Source: Lytechinus pictus (lineage: Eukaryota). Taken from it: 64,000 nucleotides of DNA. Location: the NCBI RefSeq assembly GCF_037042905.1, contig NC_087245.1, positions 10,852,001 to 10,916,000 on the forward strand, in the 5' to 3' direction. A program made the position numbers and the translations under genes. Shown piece by piece: positions 12,436 to 64,000 of this stretch (its first letter is position 1; every line of letters starts with the position of its first letter). The notes beneath the pieces were generated by a model. It worked only from the letters and a program-made list of their open reading frames with translations. It was not told where the DNA came from and searched no databases.

Positions 12436-15400
12436 CTAAAGAAAAGAGAGGAAACAAAACAGTAATGGTAATTAGATTACAATGGAAGACGATTCAGAGA
12501 ATAGGTGAACGTCATCAGTGTCTTTATACTGGTTGACGATGATGTTCATTTTTTTTTTCATCCGTGAAGGGGGGGGGGGGGGGTAATCATTAATTCACTT
12601 TAACATAAATTGCATTACATCCTATATTCTGATGATATGACAGGAATTACTACATCTCTCTGCGGGTGATGAAGATTTTTACTTCTTTTTTAATAAGGTT
12701 TGTATCGCGTCGTAGGTGCTTACATTCTGAAAAAAATACTTTACGTCGAATGGCAAACGGGAATAAGGACGAATTTTTAAACTGTAAACCTAAAAATTGA
12801 TGATCAACAATAAAATGATAATGGATCTCACTTACAGTTTTGACTTCCGTGTAGGCTTCCAGACCATACTCGCCTAGTTCTCGACCAGTACCAGACATCT
12901 TGTACCCTCCAAAGGGAGCCATAGTGCTTACTACGTTGTAGCAATTGATCCTTTTGAAAAATGAAAAAATAAAAATGAAATTTATCGGCAAATTTTACTT
13001 TGTACTTATATTATAGATTTTACATCCCTGGAAATGTAAAGAAATTACTTGGAATAAACACTTGCGTATAACAGATTCATCATAAAGATTATCTTCTTCA
13101 CAGAATTAATATTCGGCATTATCATCTCCAAACAACTAAACGAAAATTAACAAACGGCGGTAACAAAGTCATAGGAAGCAACAAAATATATATATCGGTA
13201 ACTTTTCACTTTCTTTCTATCTGTTCGCTTTTCATTTGTACCTTGTGTTATTTATTTGTTCATGTTGTTTTTCAGATCAAAAGCTCATCTAGGTTTTTGC
13301 CCTATCATGGTGTTACATGAATAAAACTAAACTGAAAAGCAAATTTCAAAGACTACATTTTGGACTATGTAATAAAATAAGATTACAAAACATTAATACA
13401 TTTGGTGAGCTTTTTGTTGAGTAATGTTCAAGTCATTATTTTTTGTGGCAATAGGTTTCTGCATGTGCAGCACCAATTTATTCATGTTATTGATAAGAAT
13501 TGTATAGCATCGAAACTCATTTACTTTGTCGGTGATTTAAACCGATTGGAAAAAAAAAACTCCTAGCCATTCTTGATTGATATGCAGTGCATGTTTATGA
13601 AAAATAATCAGAAATGTTTACTAGTCGAATACCAAAGTAGACATGCGTGGATCTCTCAAGAAAACAGAGATATCTTTAATTTCATTTCCAATTTATTAAG
13701 AGCTATGATAGATATTCAGATACATGTAATACCAATCTAATATTTCCAGGAAATGAGGATCTCAAAACGAGATAAAAATCAAAGTAAAGTCACTTTCCTG
13801 ATCCGATTTCAATAGTTTCACTTGTGCTAGTAAGTCTGAGGGCGTATATATTCTGTATACACATCGCCCCCTTATATATTTGTTGCACATTCAGTATAGT
13901 TCAATACAAATCATAATCATATCATAATGTTAGGATAAACTGGAAGCACTATCGTCATCAAAATGTCCTTAGTTTTCCTAGACGTTACAACCTGATACTG
14001 TAGGACCATATTGATATATGGAAGTCACGATCTTTAAGATCAAATTTAGTTTTCCAGGATAATTAACTGGAGGAGTGCATACATGAAAAGAAATTTATTT
14101 CTGATATCCGACTCTTTACGTCCTCAAGTATTATATGATATATCTGTTTTGGTAAGGTTCGTGAATGAAATAATAACTCGTGGATCAAATTTTATTTGTC
14201 TTGATATCAATTTTAAGTAGGTAAAAGATGAAGCACCAAGACTGGTTTACCCTATCAAAGCTGAAGGCTCTATCTCACAAAAGAGGATAAGCTGGATCAT
14301 ATTCCATGGGCACCTATGATCAATTTAAAATCTAGAGAGTGCGAGGATTAAACCCATCCCTAGAGTTTGAGTTTAGTTTGTAAACGTAAACTCAAGCAAA
14401 ACCTGCTATACGTTTGCGTCGTTCTATAACTTAAAAATGATTGAACTATCTGTTAGCAATCACGATGTTTGATCGAAAAACGTAATTTTATCACGATTTA
14501 ACTTAGTGGAGTTGGAAGATAAAATAAATGAAAGGAAAATTACTTGGTCTTCAGTTTAGCACTTAAATATACTAACAAACCTCTAAAACATTTTTTTTTA
14601 TTTTCACACAGCTAAATCAGTTTGGTTAACAATTAACATGTTATTTTGTATCAAATGTGATATAGATTTAAATGTAACTCATTTTTGTGTCTTAAAGATG
14701 GTATGATCATATCGAGTTAAATTATCCCATATCGTAATACCTACGAGAACTTAAACACATTCGAAAACGCCCTTTTTTAAATGATCAGTTTTGTCGACCG
14801 TTACAGTGTCCAGAGATTTTCAATTTTTTTATTGAGTTGTCAATGCTATTAAAATAATAACTGGAAATCAAACTAAAATGTCCCAAATAATAATCTAATG
14901 TAAGTATATGAAAATGATAGTCTTTGCCAGGTCTTAACGGTATCTTCTTGTAACGACTGATTCATTTAATTTCCCACTTGGTGAGAAAAGATATATATCG
15001 TATTTAAAACGCTTCATTACAATTATTGGCATCACTATAAAACAACTATGTGGTTCTAAAAAAAAAATCCCCAAATAATACTCTCCTAAGCTGGTATTGC
15101 CTTTCGCATAAGCAAAAATAACCCAGAAATCAATCATCATAATGCATGAACTTGAGCATAAACCTTATCTAGCTATTTTGCCTTAGGCCACCGGTATTTG
15201 TCGCGCATGGGTTGTTCATGAATGAGGTTTTATGACGAGATTTTGTTTCAGTATATGATGTCATCCTTTATTACATTCTTCCGGTTTAGGGAACATCCTC
15301 AATACAAAGATCTAAATCTGATTGGTTTGGATGAAAAATGAGATTGATATATTCCCAATTCCGCAAAATTCAAACATGGCTCCCATCTATCCCTTACGAT

Positions 15401-27900: not shown

Positions 27901-30900
27901 GTAATCGAGAATAAAATGAGAGACATAGGGTGTAAGATCATTGAAATGCCTATTATTCAGAGTGAAAAATAATAGTATTACACTGGAAATAGAAAGTAAT
28001 GGCATCAACATCAAAAGAGATTTCCGAAAGATCTATAATGTCTCCATGCAGGTCTCTTCATTATTACAATGAGTTGATGCTTAGAAGCCTTGAACAAGTA
28101 AGATGATCAAAATAAGATCGAGGAATTGATATCACAAAAAATAATACAGAATAGGCCTATACATTCGATTGATGATTGATAGGTCTTAATGTGGAAAAGT
28201 ATAATCAGAGAGAGTAAAAGAGGAGTCAATCAATAGTTTAAAGAAACGGATTGCATAGTATTTTCTAAGGTAAGTAACGAGTAATAGTTTGTTTCATCAT
28301 CGACGACAAATAAAGTTTTTTTTTCTATTTTTACAACACCAGATCTCTCCGATCATTTCCCTATATTCTGTGTATGTAAAGATAGAGAAAATTTTGTCTT
28401 ACCGATTAATAATAAGAATCATAAAAATAGATTAGTAAATGACAGAGGAATAGCAATGTTTAAAGATAAACTTAGTACAGTTGATTGGCAGACAGTTTAT
28501 AGTAACGATGATGTGAATATATGTTATGACTTTTTTATTTCCAAATTTTGTATGTTATATGATGAATGTTTTCCTGTCTGTACTGCAAAACCACGCAGTA
28601 GTAAAACACATTTTAAGAAACCTGGGATTACAAATGGTATATTGAGGTCAAAGAAACATAAACAAAGAATGTATAAAGGTACGATGAATACATTGAATAC
28701 AAGGAAAAAAAGGAAATAATAAATCTCTTGTATCAGGAGTATTCCCCAAAAAACTTAAAATTGCCAAAGTTATTCCTTTATATAAGAAAGGTCCAGTTGA
28801 TTGTATAGAAAATTATAGGCCCATTGCACTTTTATCTACTTTTTCAAAATTACTCGAAAAAATTATGTATAAAAGAATTTATAAATTTTTATCAAAAAAT
28901 AATCTTCTAGTTTCAGAGCAATTTGGCTTCCGGAAAAAACATTCTACTTCTTTAAGCATATTAAATATTACAGATTATATATCACGTAAATTTGATGAAG
29001 GTAAATTTTGCTGTGGGGTTTTTATGGATCTTTCCAAAGCATTTGACACCATCGACCATCACATACTGCTTGAAAAATTGTATTATTATGGTATAAGAGG
29101 TGTATCTCTTGAATGGTTTAGTAGTTATTTATTTGAAAGGAAACAGTATGTGATGGTCGATGGTGTAGCATCCAATTTTTCATATATAAATACTGGTGTT
29201 CCACAAGGTTCTGTGCTTGGGCCACTGTTATTTTTGTTATATATAAATGACATTATACATACTTCAAATATTCTCAAATTTTCATTATTTGCTGATGATA
29301 CTGCTGTCATTTCATCTCACAAAGATATAAATATTCTGATTTGTAATATTAATGTTGAATTAGAGAAACTAAGTGAATGGTATATTTGTAACAAACTCTT
29401 TTTAAATGCTGATAAAACACATTACATAATATTTCATTCCAAACAGAAAAAATTTTCTTGTCAAGTTCCCCCTGTGTATATTAAAAATGATATTCTTAAG
29501 AAATCTGATATTGTGGAATTTTTAGGCATCAAACTTCATGAATCACTAAATTGGTCTCACCACATTTCTCATGTTTGTTCTAAAATCTCAAGGGGTGTTG
29601 GTATTATAACACACTTTAGAAACACACTGCCAAAACATACTTTATTAACTATTTACAACAGTATTATATTACCACATATCAACTATTGTAATATGATATG
29701 GGGCAACTCTTACAAGACATACCTTTACAAAATTCATATTCTTCAAAAACGTGCTGTCCGTATAATTACTCATTCTAACTACATGACACCAAGTACTCCT
29801 CTATTTTGTGACCTGAAATGTTTGCCAGTTTTTGATCTTGTTACAGTAACCAATTTAATATTTATGTTCAATTTTCAAAAAAAAGAGCTCCCATCAATAT
29901 TCAATGATATGTTTAAAACAAATTCCTTTTATCATTCTTATGAGACCAGAAACAAATCAAAATTTCTTATTCCTTTTGCACGTACCTCATTAAACCAACA
30001 TACAATACGATTTCAGGGTGTTCATGATTGGAATTTGTTACCTTATGTTGTGAAAAATTCTTCAACTTTAACGAGATTCAAATGTTTATGTAAACAATTT
30101 TTGTTTAAACGTTTGATGTGCACTGAGTAGAGGGCATTCTTTCTCCCTCTCGATCTCTATCTTCCCTCTTTCTTTCTTCCCTATATCTCCTTTACTTTTT
30201 CTCTCCCGCTATCGCTTCCTTTATTTCTTACTCTTTGACTTTGTTAACTTCTCAATGTTCTGCATATGGGTGTGTGTTGGTATGCTGGTGTGATTGTGTG
30301 TGTGTATGAGGCTTGTTTTCTTTTTATCTTTACACTTTAACAACGTGAGATCTGTTTTGTTTTGTAAATTATTGTACAGGGCCCCATCCTCGCAAGCTAT
30401 GCTTTTCTTGGGGTCCTTCCGATTTTTATTTATGAATTTTATATGTATTTATTTTGATTGAGTTTTTAATGGAAAATAAATGAATTGAATTGAATTGACC
30501 AGAAATACTAAAAAAATTTTCTCATAAAAAATATAGTCTTTCAACTTTACACTAACGTAAACTCAAAATCTAAATAGGTTAATTTTTTCAGACGAAAACA
30601 TTAAAATTAAAGAGGTAAAAGAACTATGCTCGTCTTACTTGATATGTTTAATATATGATTAATAAGTTGGAATAAAGTCAATTTACATATATTTTAGGAG
30701 ATGATGGAGTGGTAAGAAAAATAATATTTATCAAGTTTCATGAATGATTCAGTGGAGTAATGAGCAAAAAAAAAGAAAGCTGAATGAAAATCTAAGTTTG
30801 TGTTAGATTTTGACATAATATCAAAAAGAAAACCTTACCCCCTCTCCTATCCTTTCCTTTCCTTTTTTTCTTGGTCGTAGAACTGGGGGAAGCATAGCCC

Positions 30901-33900
30901 ACAAGCCCCCACCCTTCTGTACGATAATTTAATTAAAGAAAATTATTAAAGCTTACGATCCGCATCTGCAAGGATGATGTTAGGACTTTTTCCGCCAAGT
31001 TCAAGGGTGACCTTCTTAATATTTGATGCTCCTGCTGCTTGCTGAATGATTTTCCCGATCTACAAAACCAAAGAAAGAAAGGATTGTGGTAGAAAAAAAA
31101 TTCGTTTTTAAGAGAGTGAATCATTTATTAACACAAGACATCTCTAAACGCGAATGCAATATTATAGGCCTATCTTTCGGAATACATAATATCTGGCTGA
31201 ATTCATTTCATTGCTTACAGTGGCGGATCTACGCCCCCCCCCCCCCCTTGGGCTTCCAATTTAAAAAAGAGTAATGACCTACCAGCCCCAAATTGCCTTA
31301 ATTTTATAGTGACCCCACTTTTTTCCTGTAAAAAAAAATCCCCGGTACCAAAATGACATTCGTTTGGTAGTGGAGCAATTTTTTTTTTTTTTGGGGGGGG
31401 GGGGGTTTGTTTGGCTTGTCAATATTCTCGGTCAAACTCCCTCCTTGGAAAAAAGCTAGATCCAACCAGGGCTGATATTGTGGTTTAGGGTCTTAGGCCT
31501 ATTTGATGGTTATTAAACCTGTCTGCTAACTTTGAAAGAAAACGAGAAAGGGAAACAATCCTTAAAACAAAATTACGATCTACTAATGAAAGAATATTAT
31601 TGCTACATCCATCAGTGCACGTTGAATGAAAAAAAATCTGACTGGTCAATGAGATTTTGATTAGCATAAAATTCCACCCTCTCAGGTTATCAGTGCACGT
31701 TGTCGTCTTGAGGTCGGAAAGTGTCTCCCGTTATAAATGTTTATGAGTAACTACAAACAATAGTTGTTCATCCAACAGATAGTAAAGCTGACATGTTTAA
31801 TGGTTTTGTATTTCTTACCTCTGTAGATCCAGTAAACGCAACCTTGTCAATGCCTGGGTGACTGGCGATTGCTGCACCAGCAGTGGGGCCATATCCCGAC
31901 AGAACATTGATCACTCCCGGTGGAAATCCAGCCTGTAACATCAAATAACATCAAAAACCTTTCAGTTTATTTAAAAAGAAAGTTTGGTTTTAAAAAGAAA
32001 AGTCAATATGATGACCAATATACAACCAGTTCAGTTTGTTAGTTTATTGTCAATACATATACCCTATTCTGCAGACAGTTTTTAAAAATGTTTTTTCTAA
32101 CAGTATACGGTTTTAATATTCGTTGGAGGATATGGATCCTCAATTTCAGTCATTTTGTCCTTAATTCAAAAGATAATGGAGTCAATATGCAAACTAATTA
32201 TAGAGATAATAAGATAATAAATTACAAAAGATTTATATACCGGTATAGTAATTAAAAGAGGGAGTGAGAAAAATACAAGTTTAATTGAATTATTTATTCT
32301 AGTTTTCACTAATGTTACTCTTATCATTTTTTCCCCTTTTCATCACACCATCGATGGACTTAGGAATGGTAAAGATAAACAAAATAACTAAAGTAAACAG
32401 AAAACGTTATCAAAACCAAATCAGGTCGACAATATCTTTCCCTCTGAAAATCTGACGATAACCACAGCAACAATAACCCCGGTTTCCCGTTTGTAGGGCC
32501 ATGGGCCCCGTCTTACAGAAAGTTGCGATTGATCCAATTAATCGCAACTGTATGGCAATCCATCAATACCACAATTTCTTTCTACAGGAATCTCCTTAGT
32601 AAACAAATAAGATCTCGATGAATCTTCAAGAGAATGATGAATGTATGAATATACATCATATCTAGAAAATAATTTGAACAAACATGCATTTCAAATGTTG
32701 GCATTGGTGGCCGTCCATAGCTGTGATTGATCGGATCAATCGTAACTCTTTGTAAGATGGGGCTCTGATATCATTATTACCTCTTTGGCGAGTTCAGCCA
32801 TGTAAAGTGCAGTGAGAGGTGTCTGTTCTGCTGTTTTCATTACGATAGTGTTTCCACAGGCCAGAGCAGGAGCCCACTTCCAGGCCAGCATCAACAGCGG
32901 GAAATTCCACTTTAAAATATAGAATTAAAAAATATAACATTGTGTTCTCCGTGTACACAAACTCTCCAGAGTCAAAGGATCCAGGATTAAGCCACTCGGA
33001 AATGCAGAAACACACATTTCTACAATTATTATTTTTTTTTATCAAACCTTCAAACAAGACCAAGCCACTGAAAAGGTTGCCCTTAATAATTTGGGACGAC
33101 TGTCTTAGATTAAAAAGGGTATAATTTGAGGCCTATTGGAGCCATTGCTGGGATGAAAGGTGACGTTTGGGCACGGAACGGGAATCCTATCTCCCCCCCC
33201 CCCCCCCCATTTCAATCTCACTGGTTCTAATGGAAAATCACACAGCTGATTTAATTTGTCTCTAATGGAAAATCACACAGCTGATTTAAATTGTCTCTAG
33301 AAGATGATTCTGACATAAATTACTGTGCGCATACATGGGGGGGGGGGGGGGGGCAATGGCATGGTTGGCGTGGCATAATTCCGCATAATAATAGCTTCAT
33401 ATTTCAAGGATATTGAAAGTGGGTTGGTCAAAGGCGTGTCCGGTACGTCTTTATGGAATGGTTTCTGACAGCAGGGGCGGATCCAGGCTTTTCCAATGGG
33501 GGGGGGGCACATTTTTTCCGACGAAAATGTAACAAGCAAAAAGAAGTTCTCACTTTTAAAGGGGGGGGGGGGGGCACGGACCGGCTTTACCCCTGTTACA
33601 CCCACAAATGTAATAATCGCCCACAAATGTAATAACGCCCACAAATGTAATAACACTTTACCCACAAATGTAATAACGCCCACAAATGTAATAACACTTT
33701 ACCCACAAATGTAATAATTTCGCCCACAAATGTAATAATGCACTTTACCCACAAATGTAATAATTTTTGATCGCCCACAAATGTAATAATGACTTTACCC
33801 ACAAATGTAATAAATTTGAAGGGATTTTTGGCGAATCCGTTTTAAACTAAAATCCTGTAGTAATGCGTTCATATAGCGATTGACCTATTGCAATAGGACC

Positions 33901-36900
33901 ATGATATAGCACAAAAATGCAAAGTCTTTTTTCCAGACCCGGTTAATTAAGAACTTATAATGTAAGTCCAAAGTCTTTTTTCCAGACCCGGTTGTTTAAA
34001 AAATTATAATAAAAGTCCAAAGTCTTTTTTCCAGACCCGGTTGTTTCAAAAGTTATGATAAAAGTCCAAAGTCTTTTTTCCAGACCCGGTTGTTAAAAAA
34101 ATTATGATATAAGTCCAAAGTCTTTTTTCTAGACCCGGTTGTTTCAAAAATTATAATATAAGTCCAAAGTCTTTTTTCCAGACCCGGTTATTTCAAAAAT
34201 TTTAATATAGGTCCAAAGTCTTTTTTCCAGACCCGGTTATTTCAAAAATTATAAAATAAGTCCAAAGTCTTTTTTCCAGACCCGGTTGATTAAAAAATTA
34301 TAATATAAGTCCAAAGTCTTTTTTCTAGAACCGGTTGTTTCAAAAATTATAATATAAGTCCAAAGTCTTTTTTCCAGACCCGGTTGTTTCAAAAATTTTA
34401 ATGTAAGTCCAAAGTCTTTTTTCCAGACCCGGTTGTTTAAAAAAATATAATATAAGTCCAAAGTCTTTTTTCCAGACCCGGTTGTTTCAAAAATTAAAAT
34501 ATAAGTCCAAAGTCTTTTTTCCAGACCCAGTTGTTTCAAAAATTATAATATAAGTCCAAACTAAGATACGATAATGATATTCCAGTGGAATGGAAATGAG
34601 AATCGAGCTTAGTCTTTTCTCCAGACCCAGTTAATCAAGACTGGTGGAATTAATGTCTTTGTTGTTGTTTTAACTTATACGTCGCTTATTGTGAATATAT
34701 GCGCTAAGAGTAAATTGAGAATCAAGCGTAGTGTTTTCTCCAAACCCAGTTACTTAAAACTTAAAACTAAAACCCTTTACCCACAAATGTAATAATTTCA
34801 TCCCACAAATGTAATAATGCACTTTACCCACATATGTTACAAAATTTGAAGGGATTTTTGGCGAATCTGTTCTAAAATAAAACCCTATAGTAATGCGTTA
34901 ATATACTAGTAGTGCAAAGTCACAGTCTTTTTTCTCTAGACCCGGTTATATAAAACATTTAAACAATCTTCCAAATAAATTCGTCTTATTGTTGAATAAC
35001 ATAGAAGTTTAGCTTAGCCTTTGCTCCAGACCCAAATCTTTCAAATAGCAAATAATGAATAATAATATTAAAAAAAACAAAGACCCCACGATTTTATTAA
35101 TGTTGAACAAAATGTAAATATAGCATAGTCTTTCCTCCAGACCCAGTTATAAAAAAATCATTCAAAAACAAAAGAACAACAACAACAACCAAAAACAGAC
35201 CTCGCAATCTTTTCAACATTGAATAGCGTGTGTGTGTGTATTTGAGTTTTGTCAGACGTGTATCAATCAGATATGATTATTTACGTCTGGGACCGACCTT
35301 TAACGTCACCATCCGAAACACGTGACCAGGGCTCGAACCTCTGCATCAATTTGTAACTTCCCCACATAGCTTGGATTACAGGCACACGCCACAACGCCCA
35401 GTTAGTGTGTGTGTGTGTGTGTGTGTATTTGAGTTTTGTCAGACGTGTATCAATCAGATATGATTATTAGTATCGAAATATGGTGTAGTCTTTGTTCCAG
35501 CCCCGGTTATTTCACAATTGCATATCATAAAGAACACTATTAACAAAGACCCCACTATCTCATTGATGTTGAATAACTTGAAAAGATAACGTAGTCTATT
35601 TTCAAGACCCAGTTATTTTAAAATAAAAAATCATAGAAAAGATATATAATAATAATAAAACAAAGGCTCCACAGTCTTACTGATGTTGAATAACATGGAA
35701 ATATAGCGCAGTCTTTCCTCCAGACCCACTTATTTCAAAATTACAAATCATTTTTTAAAGAGTCAACAAGAAACAAAGACCCCCACTATCTTATTAATGT
35801 TAAATAACATGGGAATATAGCGTAGTCTTTCATATAGACCCAGATCTTTCAAATAACAAATGAAGAATAATAATAAAAAATTAATAATAATAATAAAAAA
35901 AACAACGACCCACGATCCTAGTCATGTTGAATAATATGGAAATATAGCGTGGACTTTTCTCAAGACCCAGTAATAAAAATAATTAAAAAACACAACAACA
36001 ACAACAAAAAAGACCCTGCAATCTTATCAACATTGGATAGCATGGAAATATGGTGTAGTCTTTGCTCCAGACCCAGTTATTTCAAAATAGGAAATTATAA
36101 GAAACAATAAAAACAAACAAACAGTATCAGTAAAGACCCCACAATATCATTGATGTAGAAAAACATTGTTGTTGTTATCTTGGATTTTAAGGCGCGTATC
36201 ATATGAATATTTACGCCTATGATTAATTTGTCGTCTATTACCGTGTTTACACTTAATCGGCAATTGGTTCTGAACCAAATGCCGATGCAGAATCGGCATT
36301 TAGATTGCGTTTACACGTTGTTACAGCTCGCGGTTCAGAACCGCGAGCCGATGCAAAAACCTGAAATGATACGCATACCTACAATATACGTCATAATAAA
36401 GACAACGCTGGATCAGTGCGCTTACAATTACGTCACAATGGTAAAGTAATTGAAATGCGCACAAATTGCCGGTGCAGAATCGGCTTTCTGTTTACACGTA
36501 GTAAAAAAGCCGATTCTGCATCGGCTCGCGGTTCAGAACCTACTACTTTGGTGGTGCAAATTGCCGGTTCTGAACCGCGAGCCGATTCAAGTTGCTCGCG
36601 TTTACACGCTATGAAAAAGCCGATGCTGAATCGGCTCGCGGTTCAGAACCGCAAGCCGATTCAAATGCCGATTAAGTGTAAACACGGTATTTGTGGTATG
36701 CGTTATCACATGATTTTTATAGTTTGGCTTAATTCGTATTTTTAAGAGAACTGGGTGTGGGGTAAAGACAACACTCTAAACCCAAGCATTTTAACTGGGT
36801 TTAATTTTGAAGATTGGTCTTAGCCTAGATTTTTTTTCAATGATTGTTTATCTTTTAAATAACCGGGTCTAGAAGAAAGACTAATCATAATACTCGGGTT

Positions 36901-39900
36901 ATTCCACAGGAATAAGAATATGACAAAGTTTTATGTTTTTAAGATTGTTTAAATCATTTTTTAAATGACTGGGTCAGGAATAAAGACAACGCTTTAAACA
37001 TGTGCTTTTTTACATGGTCTTAATTTGGAGGATTGATGGTTCTTAGATTCGTTGTTGGGGGTTGGGTTTTTTATTGCTTTTTTATTCTTGAAATAACTGT
37101 GTCTGGAGGAAATTCTACAATCGATCTTCATGTTATTCCACAGTAATTAGATGATTGGGTATTCGTTTAAGAATATTTGTAAAAACTATTTTATTTTTTC
37201 AAATAATAACCAAGTCTTGAGAAAAGATGATTGCTTTACCCATGCATTATTACAATGTTTTGTAGGGGTATTAGTATTATTTAAAAAAAAAAGATGGGTG
37301 TGGGGTAAAGACATTTTTTTCTGGGTGTAACTTTTGAAAATTGGTCTTAGATTTGAAGTATTTTTAAATTTCATTTTTTTTAAAACTGGGTCTGGAGGAA
37401 AGAGTACGTTTTGAATCTCGTCTTATTCCACAAGAATAAGAATATGATAGGGTCTTACGTTAGAAGATTTTTTTTGGGGTAATATTTTAAATGATTAGGT
37501 CTGGAATAAAGACAACGTTCTTAACCTCTTTTTAAAACAGGTTCTTAGGTTGAAGGATTGCTTGGTCTTAGATTTGTAGTTTTTTATTATTACTATTTGC
37601 GATATTTTGAAAAAAAATAACTGGGTCTGGCTGAAAGACTACTCTATATGTCCATGTCATCCATCATTAACAAGATTATGGAGTCTTTTTACTGTTTTTG
37701 TTGTTGTATTGTTATTTATAATTTTGGAATAACAGGGTTTAGAGAAAAGACTAAGCTCAATTTTCATTTTTATTCCACTGGAATATCATTATGGTATCTT
37801 AGTTTGGACTTATATTATGATTTTTTAAATAACCCGGTCTGGAAAAAAGACTTTGGACTTATAGTATGATTTTTTAAACAACCGGGTCTGGAAAAAAGGC
37901 TTTGGACTTATATTATATTTTTTTTACTCAAACAGGTCTGGAAAAAAGACTGACTTTTATTATAATTTTTTAATTAACCTGGTCTGGAAAAAAGACTTTG
38001 CACTTTTGTGCAATATGAACGCATTACTTTAGGGTTTTCGTTTTCAGTTTTAAGTAACCGGGTCTGGAGAAAAGACTACGCTTGGTTCTGAATGTACTCT
38101 TAGCGCATATATTCACAATACGCGCCGTATAATTTCAAAAAACAACAAAGACATTTATTCCATCAGCTTTAATTAACTGGGTCTGGAGAAAAGACTAAGC
38201 TCGATTCTCATTTCCATTCCACTGGAATATCATTATCGTATCTTAGTTTGGACTTATATTATAATTTTTGAAACAACTGGGTCTGGAAAAAAGACTTTGG
38301 ACTTATATTTTAATTTTTGAAACAACCGGGTCTGGAAAAAAGACTTTGGACTTATATTATATTTTTTTAAACAACCGGGTCTGGAAAAAAGACTTTGGAC
38401 TTACATTAAAATTTTTGAAACAACCGGGTCTGGAAAAAAGACTTTGGACTTATATTATAATTTTTGAAACAACCGGTTCTAGAAAAAAGACTTTGGACTT
38501 ATATTATAATTTTTTAATCAACCGGGTCTGGAAAAAAGACTTTGGACTTATTTTATAATTTTTGAAATAACCGTGTCTGGAAAAAGGACTGGACTTATAT
38601 CATAATTTTTGAAACAACCGGGTCTGGAAAAAAAGACTTTGGACTTGCATTATAATTTTTGATACAACCGGTCTGGAAAAAAGACTTTGGACTTATATCA
38701 TAATTTTTTAATCAACTGGGTCTGGAAAAAAGACTTTGGACTTATATTATAATTTTTGAAACAACCGGGTCTGGAAAAAAGACTTTAAACTTATATTATA
38801 ATATTTTTTAAACAACCGGGTCTGGAAAAAAGACTTTGGACTTATATTATAATTTTTGAAATAACCGGGTCTTGAAAAAAGACTTTGGACTTATATTATA
38901 ATTTTTGAAATAACCGTGTCTGGAAAAAGGACTGGACTTATATCATAATTTTTGAAACAACCGGGTCTGGAAAAAAAGACTTTGGACTTGCATTATAATT
39001 TTTGATACAACCGGTCTGGAAAAAAGACTTTGGACTTATATCATAATTTTTTAATCAACTGGGTCTGGAAAAAAGACTTTGGACTTATATTATAATTTTT
39101 GAAACAACCGGGTCTGGAAAAAAGACTTTAAACTTATATTATAATATTTTTTAAACAACCGGGTCTGGAAAAAAGACTTTGGACTTATATTATAATTTTT
39201 GAAATAACCGGGTCTTGAAAAAAGACTTTGGACTTATATTATAATTTTTTAAACAACCGGGTCTGGAAAAAAGGCTTTGGACTTATATTATATTTTTTTA
39301 ATTAACCGGGTCTGGAAAAAAGACTTTGCACTTTTGTGCTATATCATGGACCTATTGGTCCATCGCTATATGAACGCATTACTACAGGATTTCAGTTTAG
39401 AACGGATTCGCCAAAAATCCCTTCAAATTTATTACATTTGTGGGTAAAGTCATAATTACATTTGTGGGCGATCAAAAATTATTACATTTGTGGGTAAAGT
39501 GCATTATTACATTTGTGGGTGAAATTATTACATTTGTGGGTAAAGTGTTATTACATTTGTGGGCGTTATTACATTTGTGGGTAAAGTGTTATTACATTTG
39601 TGGGCGTTATTACATTTGTGGGCGTTATTACATTTGTGGGTGTAACAACCCCCCCCCCTTTGAATTCGCCACTGTCTGACAGAGTAATTGATTTGAGTAA
39701 ATATTTACAGTTCAGTGGACTAATACCCGTTATCCCGTGTCATCATTAAAATTTGTGAGAAAAAGCCTTACGACTTAAATAACTTTATAAGCACTGCATT
39801 GAAAATTATTTAAACATTCAATAACACTTTATCATGTTTAATGACTTATTCAGAAGAATGATCGAAACAGGTATACATATTCTTATAAAGATTTCAAATA

Positions 39901-43089: not shown

Positions 43090-45094
43090 TTGGGGGGGGG
43101 GGGGGGCAATGCTTGTGTGAGAGAACAGTTAAGGTGACACAAACCTGAGTGTTGCTACAGACCCTGGGACATCAATGGTGAAGGAATCTTGGTATGGTTT
43201 ACCGTTATCCAGAGTCTCTAGGCTCTAACCAAATAAAGTACAAAAAAAAATGAAAACCCGCTATCATGGTAATATAGTTACAGAAAATCATTTCAATTCA
43301 GAATCAATACTTGCAGATCTGCATTCACAATAAAATGGGTTTTAACCCTAAATAAACTGGGCTATTTCGATGCCTAAAAAGACGGAGGGGGACTGATTCA
43401 GCCCCCCCCCCCTTATGATCTCGGCCGTCGATCGCGCGATCGCGCCGAAAATTGGCACACGCGTTACCCATGGCATAATTTACAAAACTACAAGATCAAA
43501 TTCTGCGAAAAATCTCATTGCTAATCAATGATGTTAATTTATGCGTAAAATCAAAAGTTTGCTCTACTCAACTAAATAATGCCCCTGAAATTTTAATCTA
43601 TGGTACACAGACACTTTATATGAATCTGATCAAATCTACTTTAAAAAAATTTGAAAATCACATTTTTTTTCTTGTGTATTTTATTGTATTTTAAATTTCT
43701 TATGTATTTCTCTGTTTTTCGACTTTCTTTTTTTCATTGTTTTTTCAATGGAAATTGTCGGGGACTTTATTTTGACCATATATAAGATGGAATTAATTGA
43801 TTTTAATCAGTAAAAGGAAAAATAATGATACATTTATGAATTTTGGCTAAAAACACCATTTGCATTGGATTTGTACACAAATTCACACTTTTTGGCAATT
43901 TTGGGACTGCATTCACTTACGAAATGTTGCGTAATTTCAAAATCGCGTACCCGGGGTCAAAAGTTGCGCGAGACTTGAATGTAAAAAGTCAGTGAGCGAC
44001 GCGGTCAAAAAATTTCGCGCAGAGGATTTATCACGAAAAATGTCGAGGGGGGGGGGGGCTAAATCAGCCCCCCAGTCTTCTTGGGGTTAAGAAATAAATG
44101 CTTTTATTTCGATTTATGCTTTCGGCTCCTCTGAACTTTTTGCATTCGACATTATCCCTGTTTGACTATCCCCTTTCCCCGTACCCCGCCACCATTGCCT
44201 CCGCGGTACACAAATATAATGTCTTCAGTTCTGTGCTTGAATAGGCCTATTTCTTGGTTGTTTGATTGTTACATAATAAATCAAGATAATGCACAAATTA
44301 TGCAAAATTAAAATGGAAATAATAACTTAGTATGAAGTACTTTTAAAAGATAAAGACTGGACACTTTTCAGAGCCATTGATACAAAGGCTTTATTCTTCT
44401 TTAATGCTTTGAGTAATCTGTTAGAGTCGGGGTTTGAATTTACTCACGGCTAGATATGCTGCGTCCCTCTCCATTAAATCAGCCAATCTGTTGAGGAGTT
44501 TACCCCTATGGGATGCATTGGCTGTACGCCATGGGGATCCAAGCCGGAAAGCTTCATTGGCTGCAGCATAGGCAATATCTACATCAGCCTGAGGAAAAAG
44601 AAAGAAAGAAAAACAGAAATCAGGGCACGTTTCATAAAACTTGTAAAAAATTGCAATAACAGTTAAAAACAAATGAAATCATTCAATATGATTTGCTGAT
44701 AGTAAACTTGTTATGGAAATTGTGTATTTTGTTCTTATTATTGTGGGGGGGGGGAGTAGTACGGTAAAGTAGTATAAAGAGCAGCACTACTACTACTACT
44801 ACTAATACTACTACCAAAACAAATGAAATCATTCAATATGATTTGCTGATAGTAAACTTGTTATGGAAATTGTGCATTTTGTTCTTATTATTGTGGGGGG
44901 GGGAGTAGTACCGTAAAGTAGTATAAAGAGCAGCATTACTTCTACTACTACTAATACTACTACCACTACTACTACTACTAGAAGTAGTAGAAGTAGTAGT
45001 AGTAGTAGTAGTGGTAGTAGTAGTAGCAGCAGCAGCAGCAAAAGTAGTATGGATGAATGATATTAATAAGATGAATTAGTAGAAGAAGAAGGAG

Positions 45095-61100: not shown

Positions 61101-63281
61101 TAAAGCAGGAAACATGATCTACATCCCTTGAGAAAATAGAGATGACAGCAACCATGAGTGGTGAATATGAACCTGTAACAGTTCATTCAAACTTGAGCAA
61201 TCATTGCTCGCCCCTCCCTCCAATGCATATGAAACTCCAAGGGGGGGTGCTGTCAAAAAGCAATTTGTAAAGTACAACAATGTAACAAATTACTGAAGAA
61301 TGGCAAACCAAATAGGTTTGGTCAATATATTTCTTTTTTATACCATTCAAAATTTGTGTACCAATCAAAAAAGAAGAAGAGTACACGGATAGAAAAATGC
61401 CTGGCTCACATTTTGACACTTCATATTACAATGTCGAGAGTAACTCTTCAAGAGAGCTTTATGAAACATCCCTTGGGATCTACTTACTACACAGTTCCAG
61501 CTCTCATGCTGTTGGAGATGTAAAGAGCCTTGTCAATGTCCTTGGTAAAGACTGAAGCTGCAAGACCATACATGTTGTTATTGGCTCTCTCAATCACTTC
61601 ATCAATCTGACTGAACCTCATGATCTGCTGAACAGGTCCGAAGATCTACCATGAAAAAGTATTATTGAATTCAGCTCAGATATATCGAGGACAAGACCAA
61701 CTTGTTTCACTAATCATATACCCACATTTTCATCTTTCCCTTGCATGAAATCTATCACTGGCAAACATGTTTGGAATTTACTAAAATCACATAGCACAAC
61801 AATTCAATTATACATACAAACATTTATATGCTAATTTGTTTAGAAACTGTTACGATCAATTTTCACTCATTGTCAATTAGCAATTTTGTGCAAACGTGCA
61901 AGCAAATTGGCCTTGAGATTGGTGACAAGCACTGCAATTATCAGGAAAGATAGAACAATGTTTCCCATTTCTTACCTCTTCCTTCGCAATCTTCATGTTA
62001 TCAGTGACATCTCCAAAGACAGTAGGTTCAACATAGAATCCCTTGTCTCCCATTCTTGCACCACCAGATACAAGCTTGGCTCCTTCAGATTTCCCACTAT
62101 CAATGTAGCCAAGGATCTTATCCATCTGCTCTTTGTCAACCTAATTGTATCAAAATGAAGCAATGACATACCACTATAAACACATCAGGACTCATTTTTT
62201 ATTTTTATAGGAGTGGGTGTGTAATTGTAAGTATATAAATTGAATGCAAAGGTAAAGCCATCTACAATTTTGTGAGAAAATTTCATTTTGTGGAATTTAT
62301 ATCCCATGACATATAGGGAAGCAGCTCGCCTGTGACATCACAAAAAAGCAATAAACAAACTTTAATAGATCACAACTGTTAAACTTCTTTAGCTTTTCAG
62401 CAAATCTTGACCAATCTTTCTTCTGTTTTGGTTTCTGCTTTTACAATGTTGGATCAGGGTAAATTTCCACTTACACTAGATGGAGGTTATACCACTTTCA
62501 AGATTTGTGGATGCAGATCGAAATGAATACAGCTTATTTCTATTCATGAAAAGTCAAGGACAAAAATAATCTGAATAAGTCAATCCGCAATCCATCTGCA
62601 CTCAATCTCATTTTTAATTCATAAACAGGACTTTCAAATAGTGCAGCTAGTTCTGAGGTAAAAGGTTTTGTTTCCCACGCCAAGCTCTGCCCCAACTTTA
62701 CTATGATGATAATCCACAGTATTTCCTAGCTGCACTTGTACTTGAAAAAAAATAATACGGACCATAAATAAAGATGCTTTAATAGGAGGAAATTATAATT
62801 TGTTAACAAATTTTCAGCATTACTCCTATGTGTTTAAGATCGCATGCTCGATCTGTAATGAAAATCATAAGTCAGAAAAAATTGGAACCAGTGGGATTCG
62901 AACCTGCCATCTACTGCTTTCCAGGCAGCAACTTAACCACCAGGCTATTCTGGTTCATGGCTAAATCACGGTGAACTGGAATTCAAATACTCTGAATTCA
63001 AAAATGCAATTTTAATGCTGAATCTGCATTATTCTGATCTGTATTCAATCCCAACTTTTTAAGGGTGAAATGTGTATTAGATGATAGAAGGCATACCTGT
63101 GGACCTTGCTCATTTGAAGCATCAAATGGACTCCCAACGGTGCGTGCTTTAGCACGAGCTGCTGCTTTCTCTAAAAAGTCATCATAGATACTGTCTTCAA
63201 CAAAGGTCCTTGATCCAGCACAGCAGCACTGTCCCATGTTGAAGAAAAGAGCAAAGTGACTCTGCTCAACAGCATAATCAA
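58070..63281 (-). CDS. ALDH2: Gene B: 3' part (last five exons) of a second, canonical ALDH2-like paralog; 5' exons lie beyond the window end
   Basis: Exons 63281-63097, 62140-61976, 61645-61488, 60907-60793, 58102-58070 (185/165/158/115/33 nt, same sizes as gene A). [17 protein letters not shown] and [16 protein letters not shown] closely match ALDH2. Confidence 0.93.
58606..60340. mobile_element. 1.74-kb non-autonomous hAT-like element in the last intron of gene B
   Basis: TIR TAAGCCTGAGTC..ATCGATT / AATCGAT..GACTCAGGCTTA; perfect 8-bp TSD GTCACAAG; TCGA-rich subterminal regions. Confidence 0.85.
60793..60907 (-). CDS. Gene B exon ([38 protein letters not shown])
   Basis: 115 nt, cag|T GTC...TCG|gtaagt. 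Confidence 0.95.
61488..61645 (-). CDS. Gene B exon ([53 protein letters not shown])
   Basis: 158 nt, tag|ATC...TA|gtaagt. Confidence 0.95.
61976..62140 (-). CDS. Gene B exon ([55 protein letters not shown])
   Basis: 165 nt, tag|GTT...GAG|gtaaga. Confidence 0.95.
62885..62956 (-). pseudogene. tRNA-like sequence (GGA anticodon loop; probable pseudogene or SINE head)
   Basis: Acceptor GAACCAG/CTGGTTC pairs; A box TAGCCTGGTGG; anticodon arm CTGC-CTGGAAA-GCAG; B box GGTTCGAATCC; T- and D-stems mismatched. Confidence 0.55.
63097..63281 (-). CDS. Gene B exon ([61 protein letters not shown])
   Basis: 185 nt, cag|TT...CAG|gtatgc. Confidence 0.95.
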
Positions 63282-64000
63282 CTGAAAATAAAACGTGTAT
63301 TATCTTAATAATACCCTATATATGAATTTGAATTAAGAGAAGTGCAACTGATTATGGCCTTAAAAGAACAAAAGCCCTTTTGAAGGATAATGCAATGTGC
63401 CAGGTATGTTCCTACATGTACATTAGCACATAAATGTAATCTACTGGTAGGATGTCTCAACTTGAAGCCCATACCCCCCCTGTCGTTATTATTGGTTGAT
63501 GAAAGGAATTCCAAACCTTAAAGAAATATCAGACATAATCCTTTAATAACAAATAGATTCAGAGTTGAATAAGTATTTATCAAACATTACAGGTCCCAAA
63601 AATGAACATACACTTTTGATGAAAGGAGCGTAATTTATGCTATCAAAATATAGCCTAGAATATATTGCCTTGACAGGAAAAGTGGAGAGACGGTGTAGTC
63701 ATGGAGGAATACTTTGGATGAACAGTCTTCAGATACTAGAAGAAAGACAAAGATAAAATTGGAGGTGGTGCTCAAAGAGAGTGCTATGAGCGGTTAAGTA
63801 TAAAAACACCTAGAGAAAATAGCCCAAAGTTCATTTACATCAAACTTAGTCTATTTTTGCCACTAGGTTTGAACCCATTGAAATCACAGGGATAAAAGAC
63901 TAGGACCCCGTTCTCATTACCGTCCTAAAACTGGTTTACTAGAAACTATTTTAGTGGAAACTAGTTTAACGTGTAATGAGAACGGTTGAAGCAGTCTTGG

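Follow-up and report, generated by a model that had tools for sequence, protein, structure and literature searches.

The window analysed here, a stretch of 64,000 nucleotides (nt) from the sea urchin Lytechinus pictus (GCF_037042905.1, contig NC_087245.1, positions 10,852,001 to 10,916,000 of the forward strand), contains on its minus strand a full-length copy of a short interspersed element (SINE) with a head derived from 7SL RNA. This copy is 176 nt long and runs from 35403 down to 35228, that is, from AACTGGG to a terminal (CA)6. A direct reading of the minus strand gives AACTGGGCGTTGTGGCGTGTGCCTGTAATCCAAGCTATGTGGGGAAGT at the start, then the linker TACAAATTGATGCAGA, the motif GGTTCGAGCCC, TGGTCACGTGTTTCGGATGGTGACGTTAAAGGTCGGTCCCAGACGT, the tail AAATAATCATATCTGATTGATACACGTCTGACAAAACTCAAATA and finally (CA)6. 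The 47-nt head (35356–35402) corresponds to nt 1–46 of a 7SL gene variant of the same genome; this part of the 5' Alu domain spans helices 2, 3 and 4 and contains the CCTGTAATCC stretch. It is followed by the B-box-like motif (35329–35339), a Deu/Nin-like core, GGTCACGT.TTTCGGATGGTGACGTTAAAGGTCGGTCCC, placed at 35289–35327 by by-eye alignment to published rows, a 3' tail (35240–35288) described from the minimum-free-energy fold of the family consensus, and the (CA)6 terminal microsatellite (35228–35239), whose length differs among copies. All parts named in the original prediction, which had been made from the letters of this stretch alone, are thus present on the minus strand: ACTGGGCGTTGTGGCGTGTGCCTGTAATCCAAGCTATGTGGGGAAG from 35402, GGTTCGAGCCC at 35339–35329, the body TTTCGGATGGTGACGTTAAAGGTCGGTCCCAGACGTAAA, and (CA)6 ending at 35228. 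Compared with the majority consensus of 26 full-length SINE copies, which was also used for the comparison of the head, the window copy carries two substitutions, one at 35384 (C>T, in a CpG; the consensus and 7SL both have C) and one at 35319 (C>G).

The range given by the same prediction, 35228..35468, holds two things: the full unit at 35228–35403 and a second, 5'-truncated tail copy. This extra piece lies 5' of the SINE on the same strand (35404–35468) and consists of a 54-nt tail copy (35415–35468), which is 100% identical to the last 54 nt of the SINE (repeat family D20), followed by (CA)5 and a T (35404–35414).

The similarity of the head to 7SL RNA was analysed by comparison with Rfam models and with the 7SL genes of the same genome. 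While a scan of the whole window at the gathering threshold gave no match, the 501-nt stretch 35100–35600, scanned against 4,227 families at E<=10, matched the signal recognition particle (SRP) model Metazoa_SRP (RF00017) at 35316–35402 on the minus strand (29.2 bits, E = 7.8e-6). For comparison, an authentic 7SL gene reaches 43.8 bits with its first 50 nt only. The score of a consensus-like SINE copy is 29.6 bits over positions 1–44 of the SRP model, with helices 2, 3 and 4 all drawn paired, and the single non-standard pair in helix 3 is identical in the SINE head and the real 7SL gene. Counted on the RF00017 alignment, the metazoan consensus agrees at 29/36 of the first model positions; the value of 29/36 given earlier referred to human 7SL.

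The genome (811.7 Mb, 368 contigs) contains seven full-length 7SL genes with scores of 272–283 bits. Nucleotides 1–47 of the SINE consensus are identical to the 7SL variant L037 in 42/49 columns, including all of the first 30 nt, and to the commoner type L031 in 40/48 columns. The local alignment scores of the head against these genes range from 60 to 63, whereas the maximum reached by shuffled sequences is 27 (0/300 reach the observed score). In addition, a paired change in helix 2 (U3/A45) is common to the SINE and L037, where the other six 7SL genes have C and G. Because this U3 and its pairing A are shared by the two, a 7SL gene of the L037 type is the likely source of the SINE head. The letters GCGTTGTGGCGTG are likewise common to the SINE and the 7SL of this genome, while the metazoan consensus differs there. 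In the loop region, older copies (74–89% identical to the head-region query) deviate less from 7SL, with readings such as ...CCAGCTACGTGGGG and ...GCTACATTGAGGAAGT, and their loop letters support descent from 7SL through approximately nt 46. Beyond this point the similarity ends. For nt 48–122 the score against 7SL was reached by 171–174/300 shuffles and for nt 48–161 by 189–197/300, giving no 7SL similarity past nt 47, and when the entire consensus is aligned locally to 7SL, the best alignment takes in the head alone. The B box GGTTCGAGCCC lies in this part without 7SL similarity and is presumed to be of tRNA origin.

An ordinary tRNA-derived head, resembling 7SL merely by virtue of a common A-box-like 5' end, is very improbable as an explanation for these data. 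It would account for the tRNA-type B-box motif of the SINE, and a mollusc tRNA-derived head (row Lsa_3) does begin with GACGGGCGCTGTGGCG, which is near GGGCGTTGTGGCG here. However, the identity to the sea urchin's own 7SL extends through GTGCGCCTGTAATCC and beyond over the 42/49 columns mentioned above, at a score that no shuffle reaches, and in the SINE no tRNA was found by ARAGORN or by Rfam at E<=10, where Rfam does return the SRP family. The claim of a 7SL-headed SINE is therefore borne out by the RF00017 match and by an alignment to the own 7SL genes far above shuffles; both the comparison of the head with tRNAs and that with the species' own 7SL, which had been proposed as checks, agree with it. 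A human Alu contamination or an assembly artefact is hardly credible. The head does closely resemble Alu, but it has substitutions specific to the sea urchin's own 7SL, body and tail are not Alu-like, and the family yields 1,644 matches over many contigs, with copies nested in host-specific repeats.

Besides that, three 7SL genes that form part of a tandem cluster on contig 10 each have an older SINE copy (79–87% identical over its length) ending about 35 bp upstream of them. These copies (L031 1289–1464, L035 1293–1467, L036 1314–1467) end directly before the upstream motif shared by the genes. With the SINE first and 7SL after it, the order is the reverse of what a read-through origin of the chimera would call for.

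Downstream of the B box, the consensus tail is predicted to fold into a hairpin, in which CAGACGT (35289–35283) pairs with ACGTCTG (35259–35253) around an inner 6-bp stem, immediately before the (CA)n. A hairpin tail of such a shape is typical of SINEs that borrow the 3' end of a long interspersed element (LINE), and the hairpin is presumed to serve as the recognition site for a partner LINE. For the core, we compared GGTCACGTCTTTCGGATGGTGACGTTAAAGGTCGGTCCCAGACGT with published rows (BivaMD-SINE1 of three bivalves, Tgr_1 and Pan_1), which read, for example, GTCACGGGTCTTTCGGATGAG-ACCTTAAA-AACCGAGGTCCCGCGTCA. Against the rows BivaMD-SINE1_AsNo, BivaMD-SINE1_TeGr, Pan_1 and Tgr_1, approximately 31 identities in about 45–48 columns were counted by eye, with no statistic attached to this number. 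According to the published descriptions, the corresponding part of BivaMD-SINE1 is a Deu domain, of which the Nin domain makes up the widely conserved portion. The Deu/Nin-like stretch of the sea urchin SINE comprises only about 40 nt, compared with the 70–330 nt said to form the full domain. A partial, Deu/Nin-like core, as named in the original prediction, is a reasonable reading of this by-eye likeness. The tRNA-derived (or 5S plus tRNA) head that characterizes DeuSINE/Nin-DC elements is absent, its place being taken by the 7SL-derived head.

The sequence is not a single copy, an outcome that had been named in advance as fatal to the proposal, but belongs to a young, dispersed family. At up to 3 mismatches, the genome contains 1,644 matches, spread over many contigs, to a 30-mer of the core and 819 to a 30-mer across the 7SL/linker junction, with 0 matches for the reversed control of the former and 0 for the control of the latter. 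In a search of sequencing runs, two organisms contained 0.77–0.85 of the sampled words; runs labelled sea urchin or echinoderm metagenome had fewer than 5 words and carry no evidential weight. For a closer comparison, 30 loci were sampled by taking the exact core matches that come first on contig 1; this choice favours young copies, includes the window copy and contains two loci that overlap each other. Of these loci, 26 have the 7SL head and four are 5'-truncated, and a different head was seen in none. All 30 conserve the tail, and the four truncated copies break at different points with their tails intact. Only one pair among these loci has both flanks in common. Divergence from the consensus has a median of 1.5% (range 0–12.3%), values to which the bias of the sample towards young copies also applies. 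The unit measures 174–185 nt, with most 5' ends at the same nucleotide and a variable length of the (CA)n. The family comes in two lengths, which differ by an 8-nt duplication of GGTTCGAG in the B-box region. Since both forms also occur among the passenger copies described below (L073–L086), which descend from one insertion, this duplication arises or is lost repeatedly by slippage. In terms of the SINEBase definition (PMC3531059), the family is short (<1 kb), interspersed and non-tandem, with some copies standing in tandem or as passengers.

The element is very probably a composite SINE, a non-autonomous retroposon that joins the 5' 46–47 nt of 7SL, a linker with a non-7SL B box, a partial Deu/Nin-type core, a hairpin tail and (CA)n. 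In its proposed mode of action, RNA polymerase III would start at nt 1 from the A-box region within the 7SL piece and the B box further downstream; as indirect signs, the copy starts at 7SL nt 1 and carries the B-box motif, and the consensus contains no TTTT run. A LINE reverse transcriptase of the stringent, sequence-specific type would then recognise the tail hairpin and the (CA)n and copy the RNA to new sites, and its frequent early stops would account for the 5'-truncated copies. Recruitment of SRP9/14 by the 7SL piece may place the RNA at ribosomes. This step is drawn by parallel with human Alu, whose 46-nt 5' Alu domain binds SRP9/14, promotes retrotransposition and is needed for Alu in HeLa-cell assays (PMC12199147); the 7SL piece retained in the sea urchin SINE coincides with that domain. 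As to its origin, the chimera could have arisen by a template switch to 7SL RNA during reverse transcription of an older Deu-type SINE, similar to the template switching that has been used to explain the 5S-plus-partial-tRNA heads of vertebrate Deu SINEs (PMC4824008).

The window copy itself has a different history, as it resides in a foldback-type element of approximately 6.07 kb (33590–39655). Homology with two other copies of this element ends at 33590–33594 and 39653–39656, and one and the same segment of other copies is matched by both ends in the window, in opposite orientations. The terminal inverted arms are about 90% complementary and are built of 22-nt, 49-nt and ~110-nt subrepeats, while the centre (36260–36665) is partly palindromic. 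Copies with common ends measure 6.07 (window), 4.77 and 4.48 kb. The element thus shows subrepeat-built terminal inverted repeats, variable length and multiple dispersed copies, as is characteristic of the foldback type, and at least 46 copies contain the SINE. At the insertion, one host unit is split: 35192–35230 matches 36006–36044 (85%) and 35468–35547 matches 36038–36117 (81%; families D13 and D9). These two pieces are contiguous in the intact unit 36006–36117 and lie 237 nt apart at the SINE. The duplication of the host unit at this insertion comprises at most 3 nt, (A/G)CT on the SINE strand.

A 901-nt query for the host sequence returned at least 40 scored genomic places, and in all 14/14 fetched host copies the SINE occupies the identical site, between ...CACCATATTTCGATACT and GCTATTCAATGTTG... 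Similarly, a 32-mer over the 5' junction has 43 matches (control 0). The two substitutions that set the window copy apart from the family consensus recur among the passengers, with G at 35319 in 12/15 aligned rows and T at 35384 in 8/15. The window SINE copy did not retrotranspose into this locus; it was carried here inside the foldback element, and one ancestral SINE insertion preceded the multiplication of the 6-kb element, which took the SINE along at its fixed site. The earlier description of a real insertion is accordingly right in that the SINE interrupts a host repeat unit, but the event is ancestral to the foldback element and did not happen at this locus. The extra 54-nt tail with its (CA)n was found only in the host copies of the window, contig 6 and contig 10. 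These three have flanks in common on both sides of a 241-nt block, and the extra piece is flanked by ACT on both sides. In this three-copy sublineage, a 5'-truncated tail fragment would have been added later at the 5' edge of the SINE, either through a second, 5'-truncated insertion that hit this position or by local duplication.

DNA-level amplification also occurred outside the foldback element. One old SINE copy sits in a third repeat with at least 40 copies, which are 98–99% identical (L100–L104), and a 1.7-kb tandem array with 12 truncated SINE tails lies on contig 18 around 3150284–3170649. A dimeric SINE family was considered and rejected: the flanks of ten tandem dimers with an identical junction (loci L006–L013, L015 and L018) are the same in every case, which marks these dimers as cargo of another repeat.

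Several observations weigh against the composite SINE proposed above. Of the 1,644 matches, at least about 110, including the approximately 46 foldback passengers, are secondary copies made at the DNA level, and raw match counts consequently give too high a figure for retrotransposition events. Target-site duplications are short or unclear: direct repeats of >=5 nt occur in 5/26 copies, compared with 37/650 mismatched flank pairs, and a score of >=7 in 1/26 copies, compared with 0/78, which is a weak enrichment. In a hand count, helix 4 of the SINE head keeps 3/5 pairs of the own 7SL and has a longer loop, so that binding of SRP9/14 is uncertain. The partner LINE was not found in four genome pattern searches that required part of the tail and excluded the SINE core. 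Likewise, no tRNA-headed sibling sharing the B box or the core was found with stringent patterns (<=1–2 mismatches), which a diverged parent could escape. Because such a sibling was not found, template switching is argued by analogy only and the head-swap origin stays an inference.

Some of these points would also fit a repeat that is not, or no longer, a retroposon of its own and that spread mainly as DNA-level cargo of foldbacks, other repeats and arrays. In favour of such cargo speak the window copy and at least 45 others at one fixed foldback site, the ten dimers with identical flanks, the at least 40 copies of one old insertion and the 12-unit tandem array, besides the weak target-site duplications and the elusive partner LINE. 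However, only one pair in 30 loci shares its flanks, 4/30 copies are 5'-truncated at different points with tails intact, the (CA)n lengths vary while most 5' ends coincide, and passengers make up approximately 110 of 1,644 matches. We consider a spread mainly as cargo improbable, and retain the composite SINE copied by a LINE as the preferred reading.

The searches for relatives returned mostly the family itself. Those for the partner LINE gave 47, 40, 16 and 156 matches, nearly all of them SINE copies with indels, 5'-truncated copies and passengers. Recurrent sequences upstream of the tail matches were the 1.7-kb tandem array, the old SINE copy in the repeat of at least 40 copies, and two CGCCACTG loci. 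At the latter (L071 and L072, which are unrelated), the final 22 nt of the SINE tail and a (CA)n-like run come after CGCCACTG; the genome contains this arrangement nowhere else, and no reverse-transcriptase frame was found within 5 kb upstream of either. The sibling pattern search gave 44 matches, nearly all from the own family, and a second search gave 3 matches compared with 2 for the control. ARAGORN called a tRNA in 0/11 fetched sibling candidates.

In the literature, 7SL-derived SINEs are stated to be known only from supraprimates, hagfish and shrew mole (Kojima 2020, PMC7245038; Kosushkin et al. 2026, PMC13023118). All of them keep both the 5' and the 3' end of 7SL after a central deletion (PMC7245038, PMC13023118), and independent lineages are called extremely rare, the shrew mole having been added in 2026 (PMC13023118). 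A 7SL-headed SINE from an invertebrate has not been reported in the literature searched up to 2026. Measured against the SINE1 class, the sea urchin family has the 5' region of 7SL at its 5' end, but lacks a 3' 7SL region following a central deletion, with which a complete Alu domain including helix 5 could form, as well as a 7SL-derived B box, GGTTCGAGCCC being outside the 7SL-like part. The SINEBase rule of >=60% identity over >=60 nt of a tRNA, 5S rRNA or 7SL (PMC3531059) is missed on length only, at 47 nt. The family thus departs from SINE1 in two defining features, and from the SINEBase overlap rule.

Among known elements, SINE1-1_EBu (Ebu1-1) of the hagfish Eptatretus burgeri is similar in being a young chimera of a 7SL 5' end on older SINE/LINE modules (PMC7245038), mobilised by a non-L1 LINE, with a microsatellite-type tail and a copy number in the low thousands (2,363; PMC13023118). 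In contrast to its RTE-derived bipartite body and target-site duplications of ~17 bp (PMC7245038), the sea urchin SINE has only 7SL nt 1–46, a non-7SL B box, a Deu/Nin-like core and short or unclear duplications. Alu, FLAM and B1 of Euarchontoglires and Urop of the shrew mole also have a 5' end copied from 7SL nt 1, but they are wholly 7SL-derived, with a central deletion of ~183 nt and the 3' end kept, depend on L1 and poly(A), and often form dimers (PMC13023118), whereas the sea urchin SINE has no 3' 7SL part and ends in a LINE-type hairpin tail with (CA)n. Closest in design are two other groups. The tree shrew Tu types II and III have a leftmost unit of dual 7SL and tRNA origin (PMC13023118, PMC7245038), though these elements, compared by description only, are mammalian, L1-dependent and multimeric. 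SINE3 and AmnSINE1, with heads of 5S rRNA and partial tRNA, share the Deu/Nin-type core and a tRNA-type head partly replaced by a polymerase III RNA (PMC4824008); the replacing RNA is 5S rRNA there and 7SL in the sea urchin family.

Sea urchins are already represented among Deu-type SINEs. Strongylocentrotus purpuratus has the Deu/Nin SINE SINE2-3_SP (PMC4824008), listed with a tRNA head and the CR1-type partner CR1Y_SP (PMC3747384), and the family described here resembles it, by description only, in its sea urchin host and the Deu/Nin-like core. Given this Repbase entry, the family may be real and already catalogued, for example as a SINE2-type entry related to SINE2-3_SP and labelled tRNA-derived, in which case only the 7SL reading of its head would be new. 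On the other hand, curators of both Repbase (PMC7245038, in 2020) and SINEBase (PMC13023118, in 2026) restrict 7SL-derived SINEs to certain mammals and hagfish, and we regard a prior catalogue entry as unlikely, though by no means far-fetched.

The sea urchin family would be the first 7SL-derived SINE outside vertebrates and the first to keep only the 5' 46–47 nt. More specifically, we tentatively propose, as a prospect somewhat short of even, that an echinoderm independently captured the minimal 46–47-nt 5' Alu domain on a Deu-type body that is moved by a sequence-specific non-L1 LINE. Provided that the head binds SRP9/14, the family would be a replicate, set up by nature, of the deletion experiment from 2025 in which the minimal Alu domain was delimited, and it would further show that ribosome docking helps SINEs to parasitise stringent LINEs. 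7SL-headed SINEs would then be a recurrent solution across deuterostomes and not a vertebrate peculiarity. The family also offers a tractable non-mammalian system to address whether ribosome docking through SRP9/14 is of general help to SINEs, also where the LINE they rely on recognises a specific tail.

The surroundings of the foldback element in the window comprise a LINE and parts of protein-coding genes. The LINE (28288–30130 and a few hundred bases downstream, plus strand) includes a 477-amino-acid reverse-transcriptase frame at 28697–30130 (Pfam RVT_1, E = 4e-36). It was considered as the partner of the SINE and rejected, as it terminates in a short repeat of the GAATT type and has nothing in common with the SINE tail. 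A protein search with its reverse transcriptase yielded no informative taxon. Three aldehyde dehydrogenase exons are located on the minus strand, at 63001–63315 (Pfam positions 249–312), 44424–44678 (positions 28–72) and 12653–12994 (positions 422–461). The protein encoded by the first is 100% identical to that of Lytechinus pictus, 84% to that of Strongylocentrotus purpuratus and 79% to that of Diadema antillarum, which marks the genome as that of a sea urchin. The order of the exons suggests two tandem genes; in that case an intron of the downstream gene would contain the foldback element and its SINE, oriented like the gene itself. Adjoining the exon at 63001–63315, ARAGORN called a candidate tRNA-Ser (GGA) at 62883–62957 on the minus strand.

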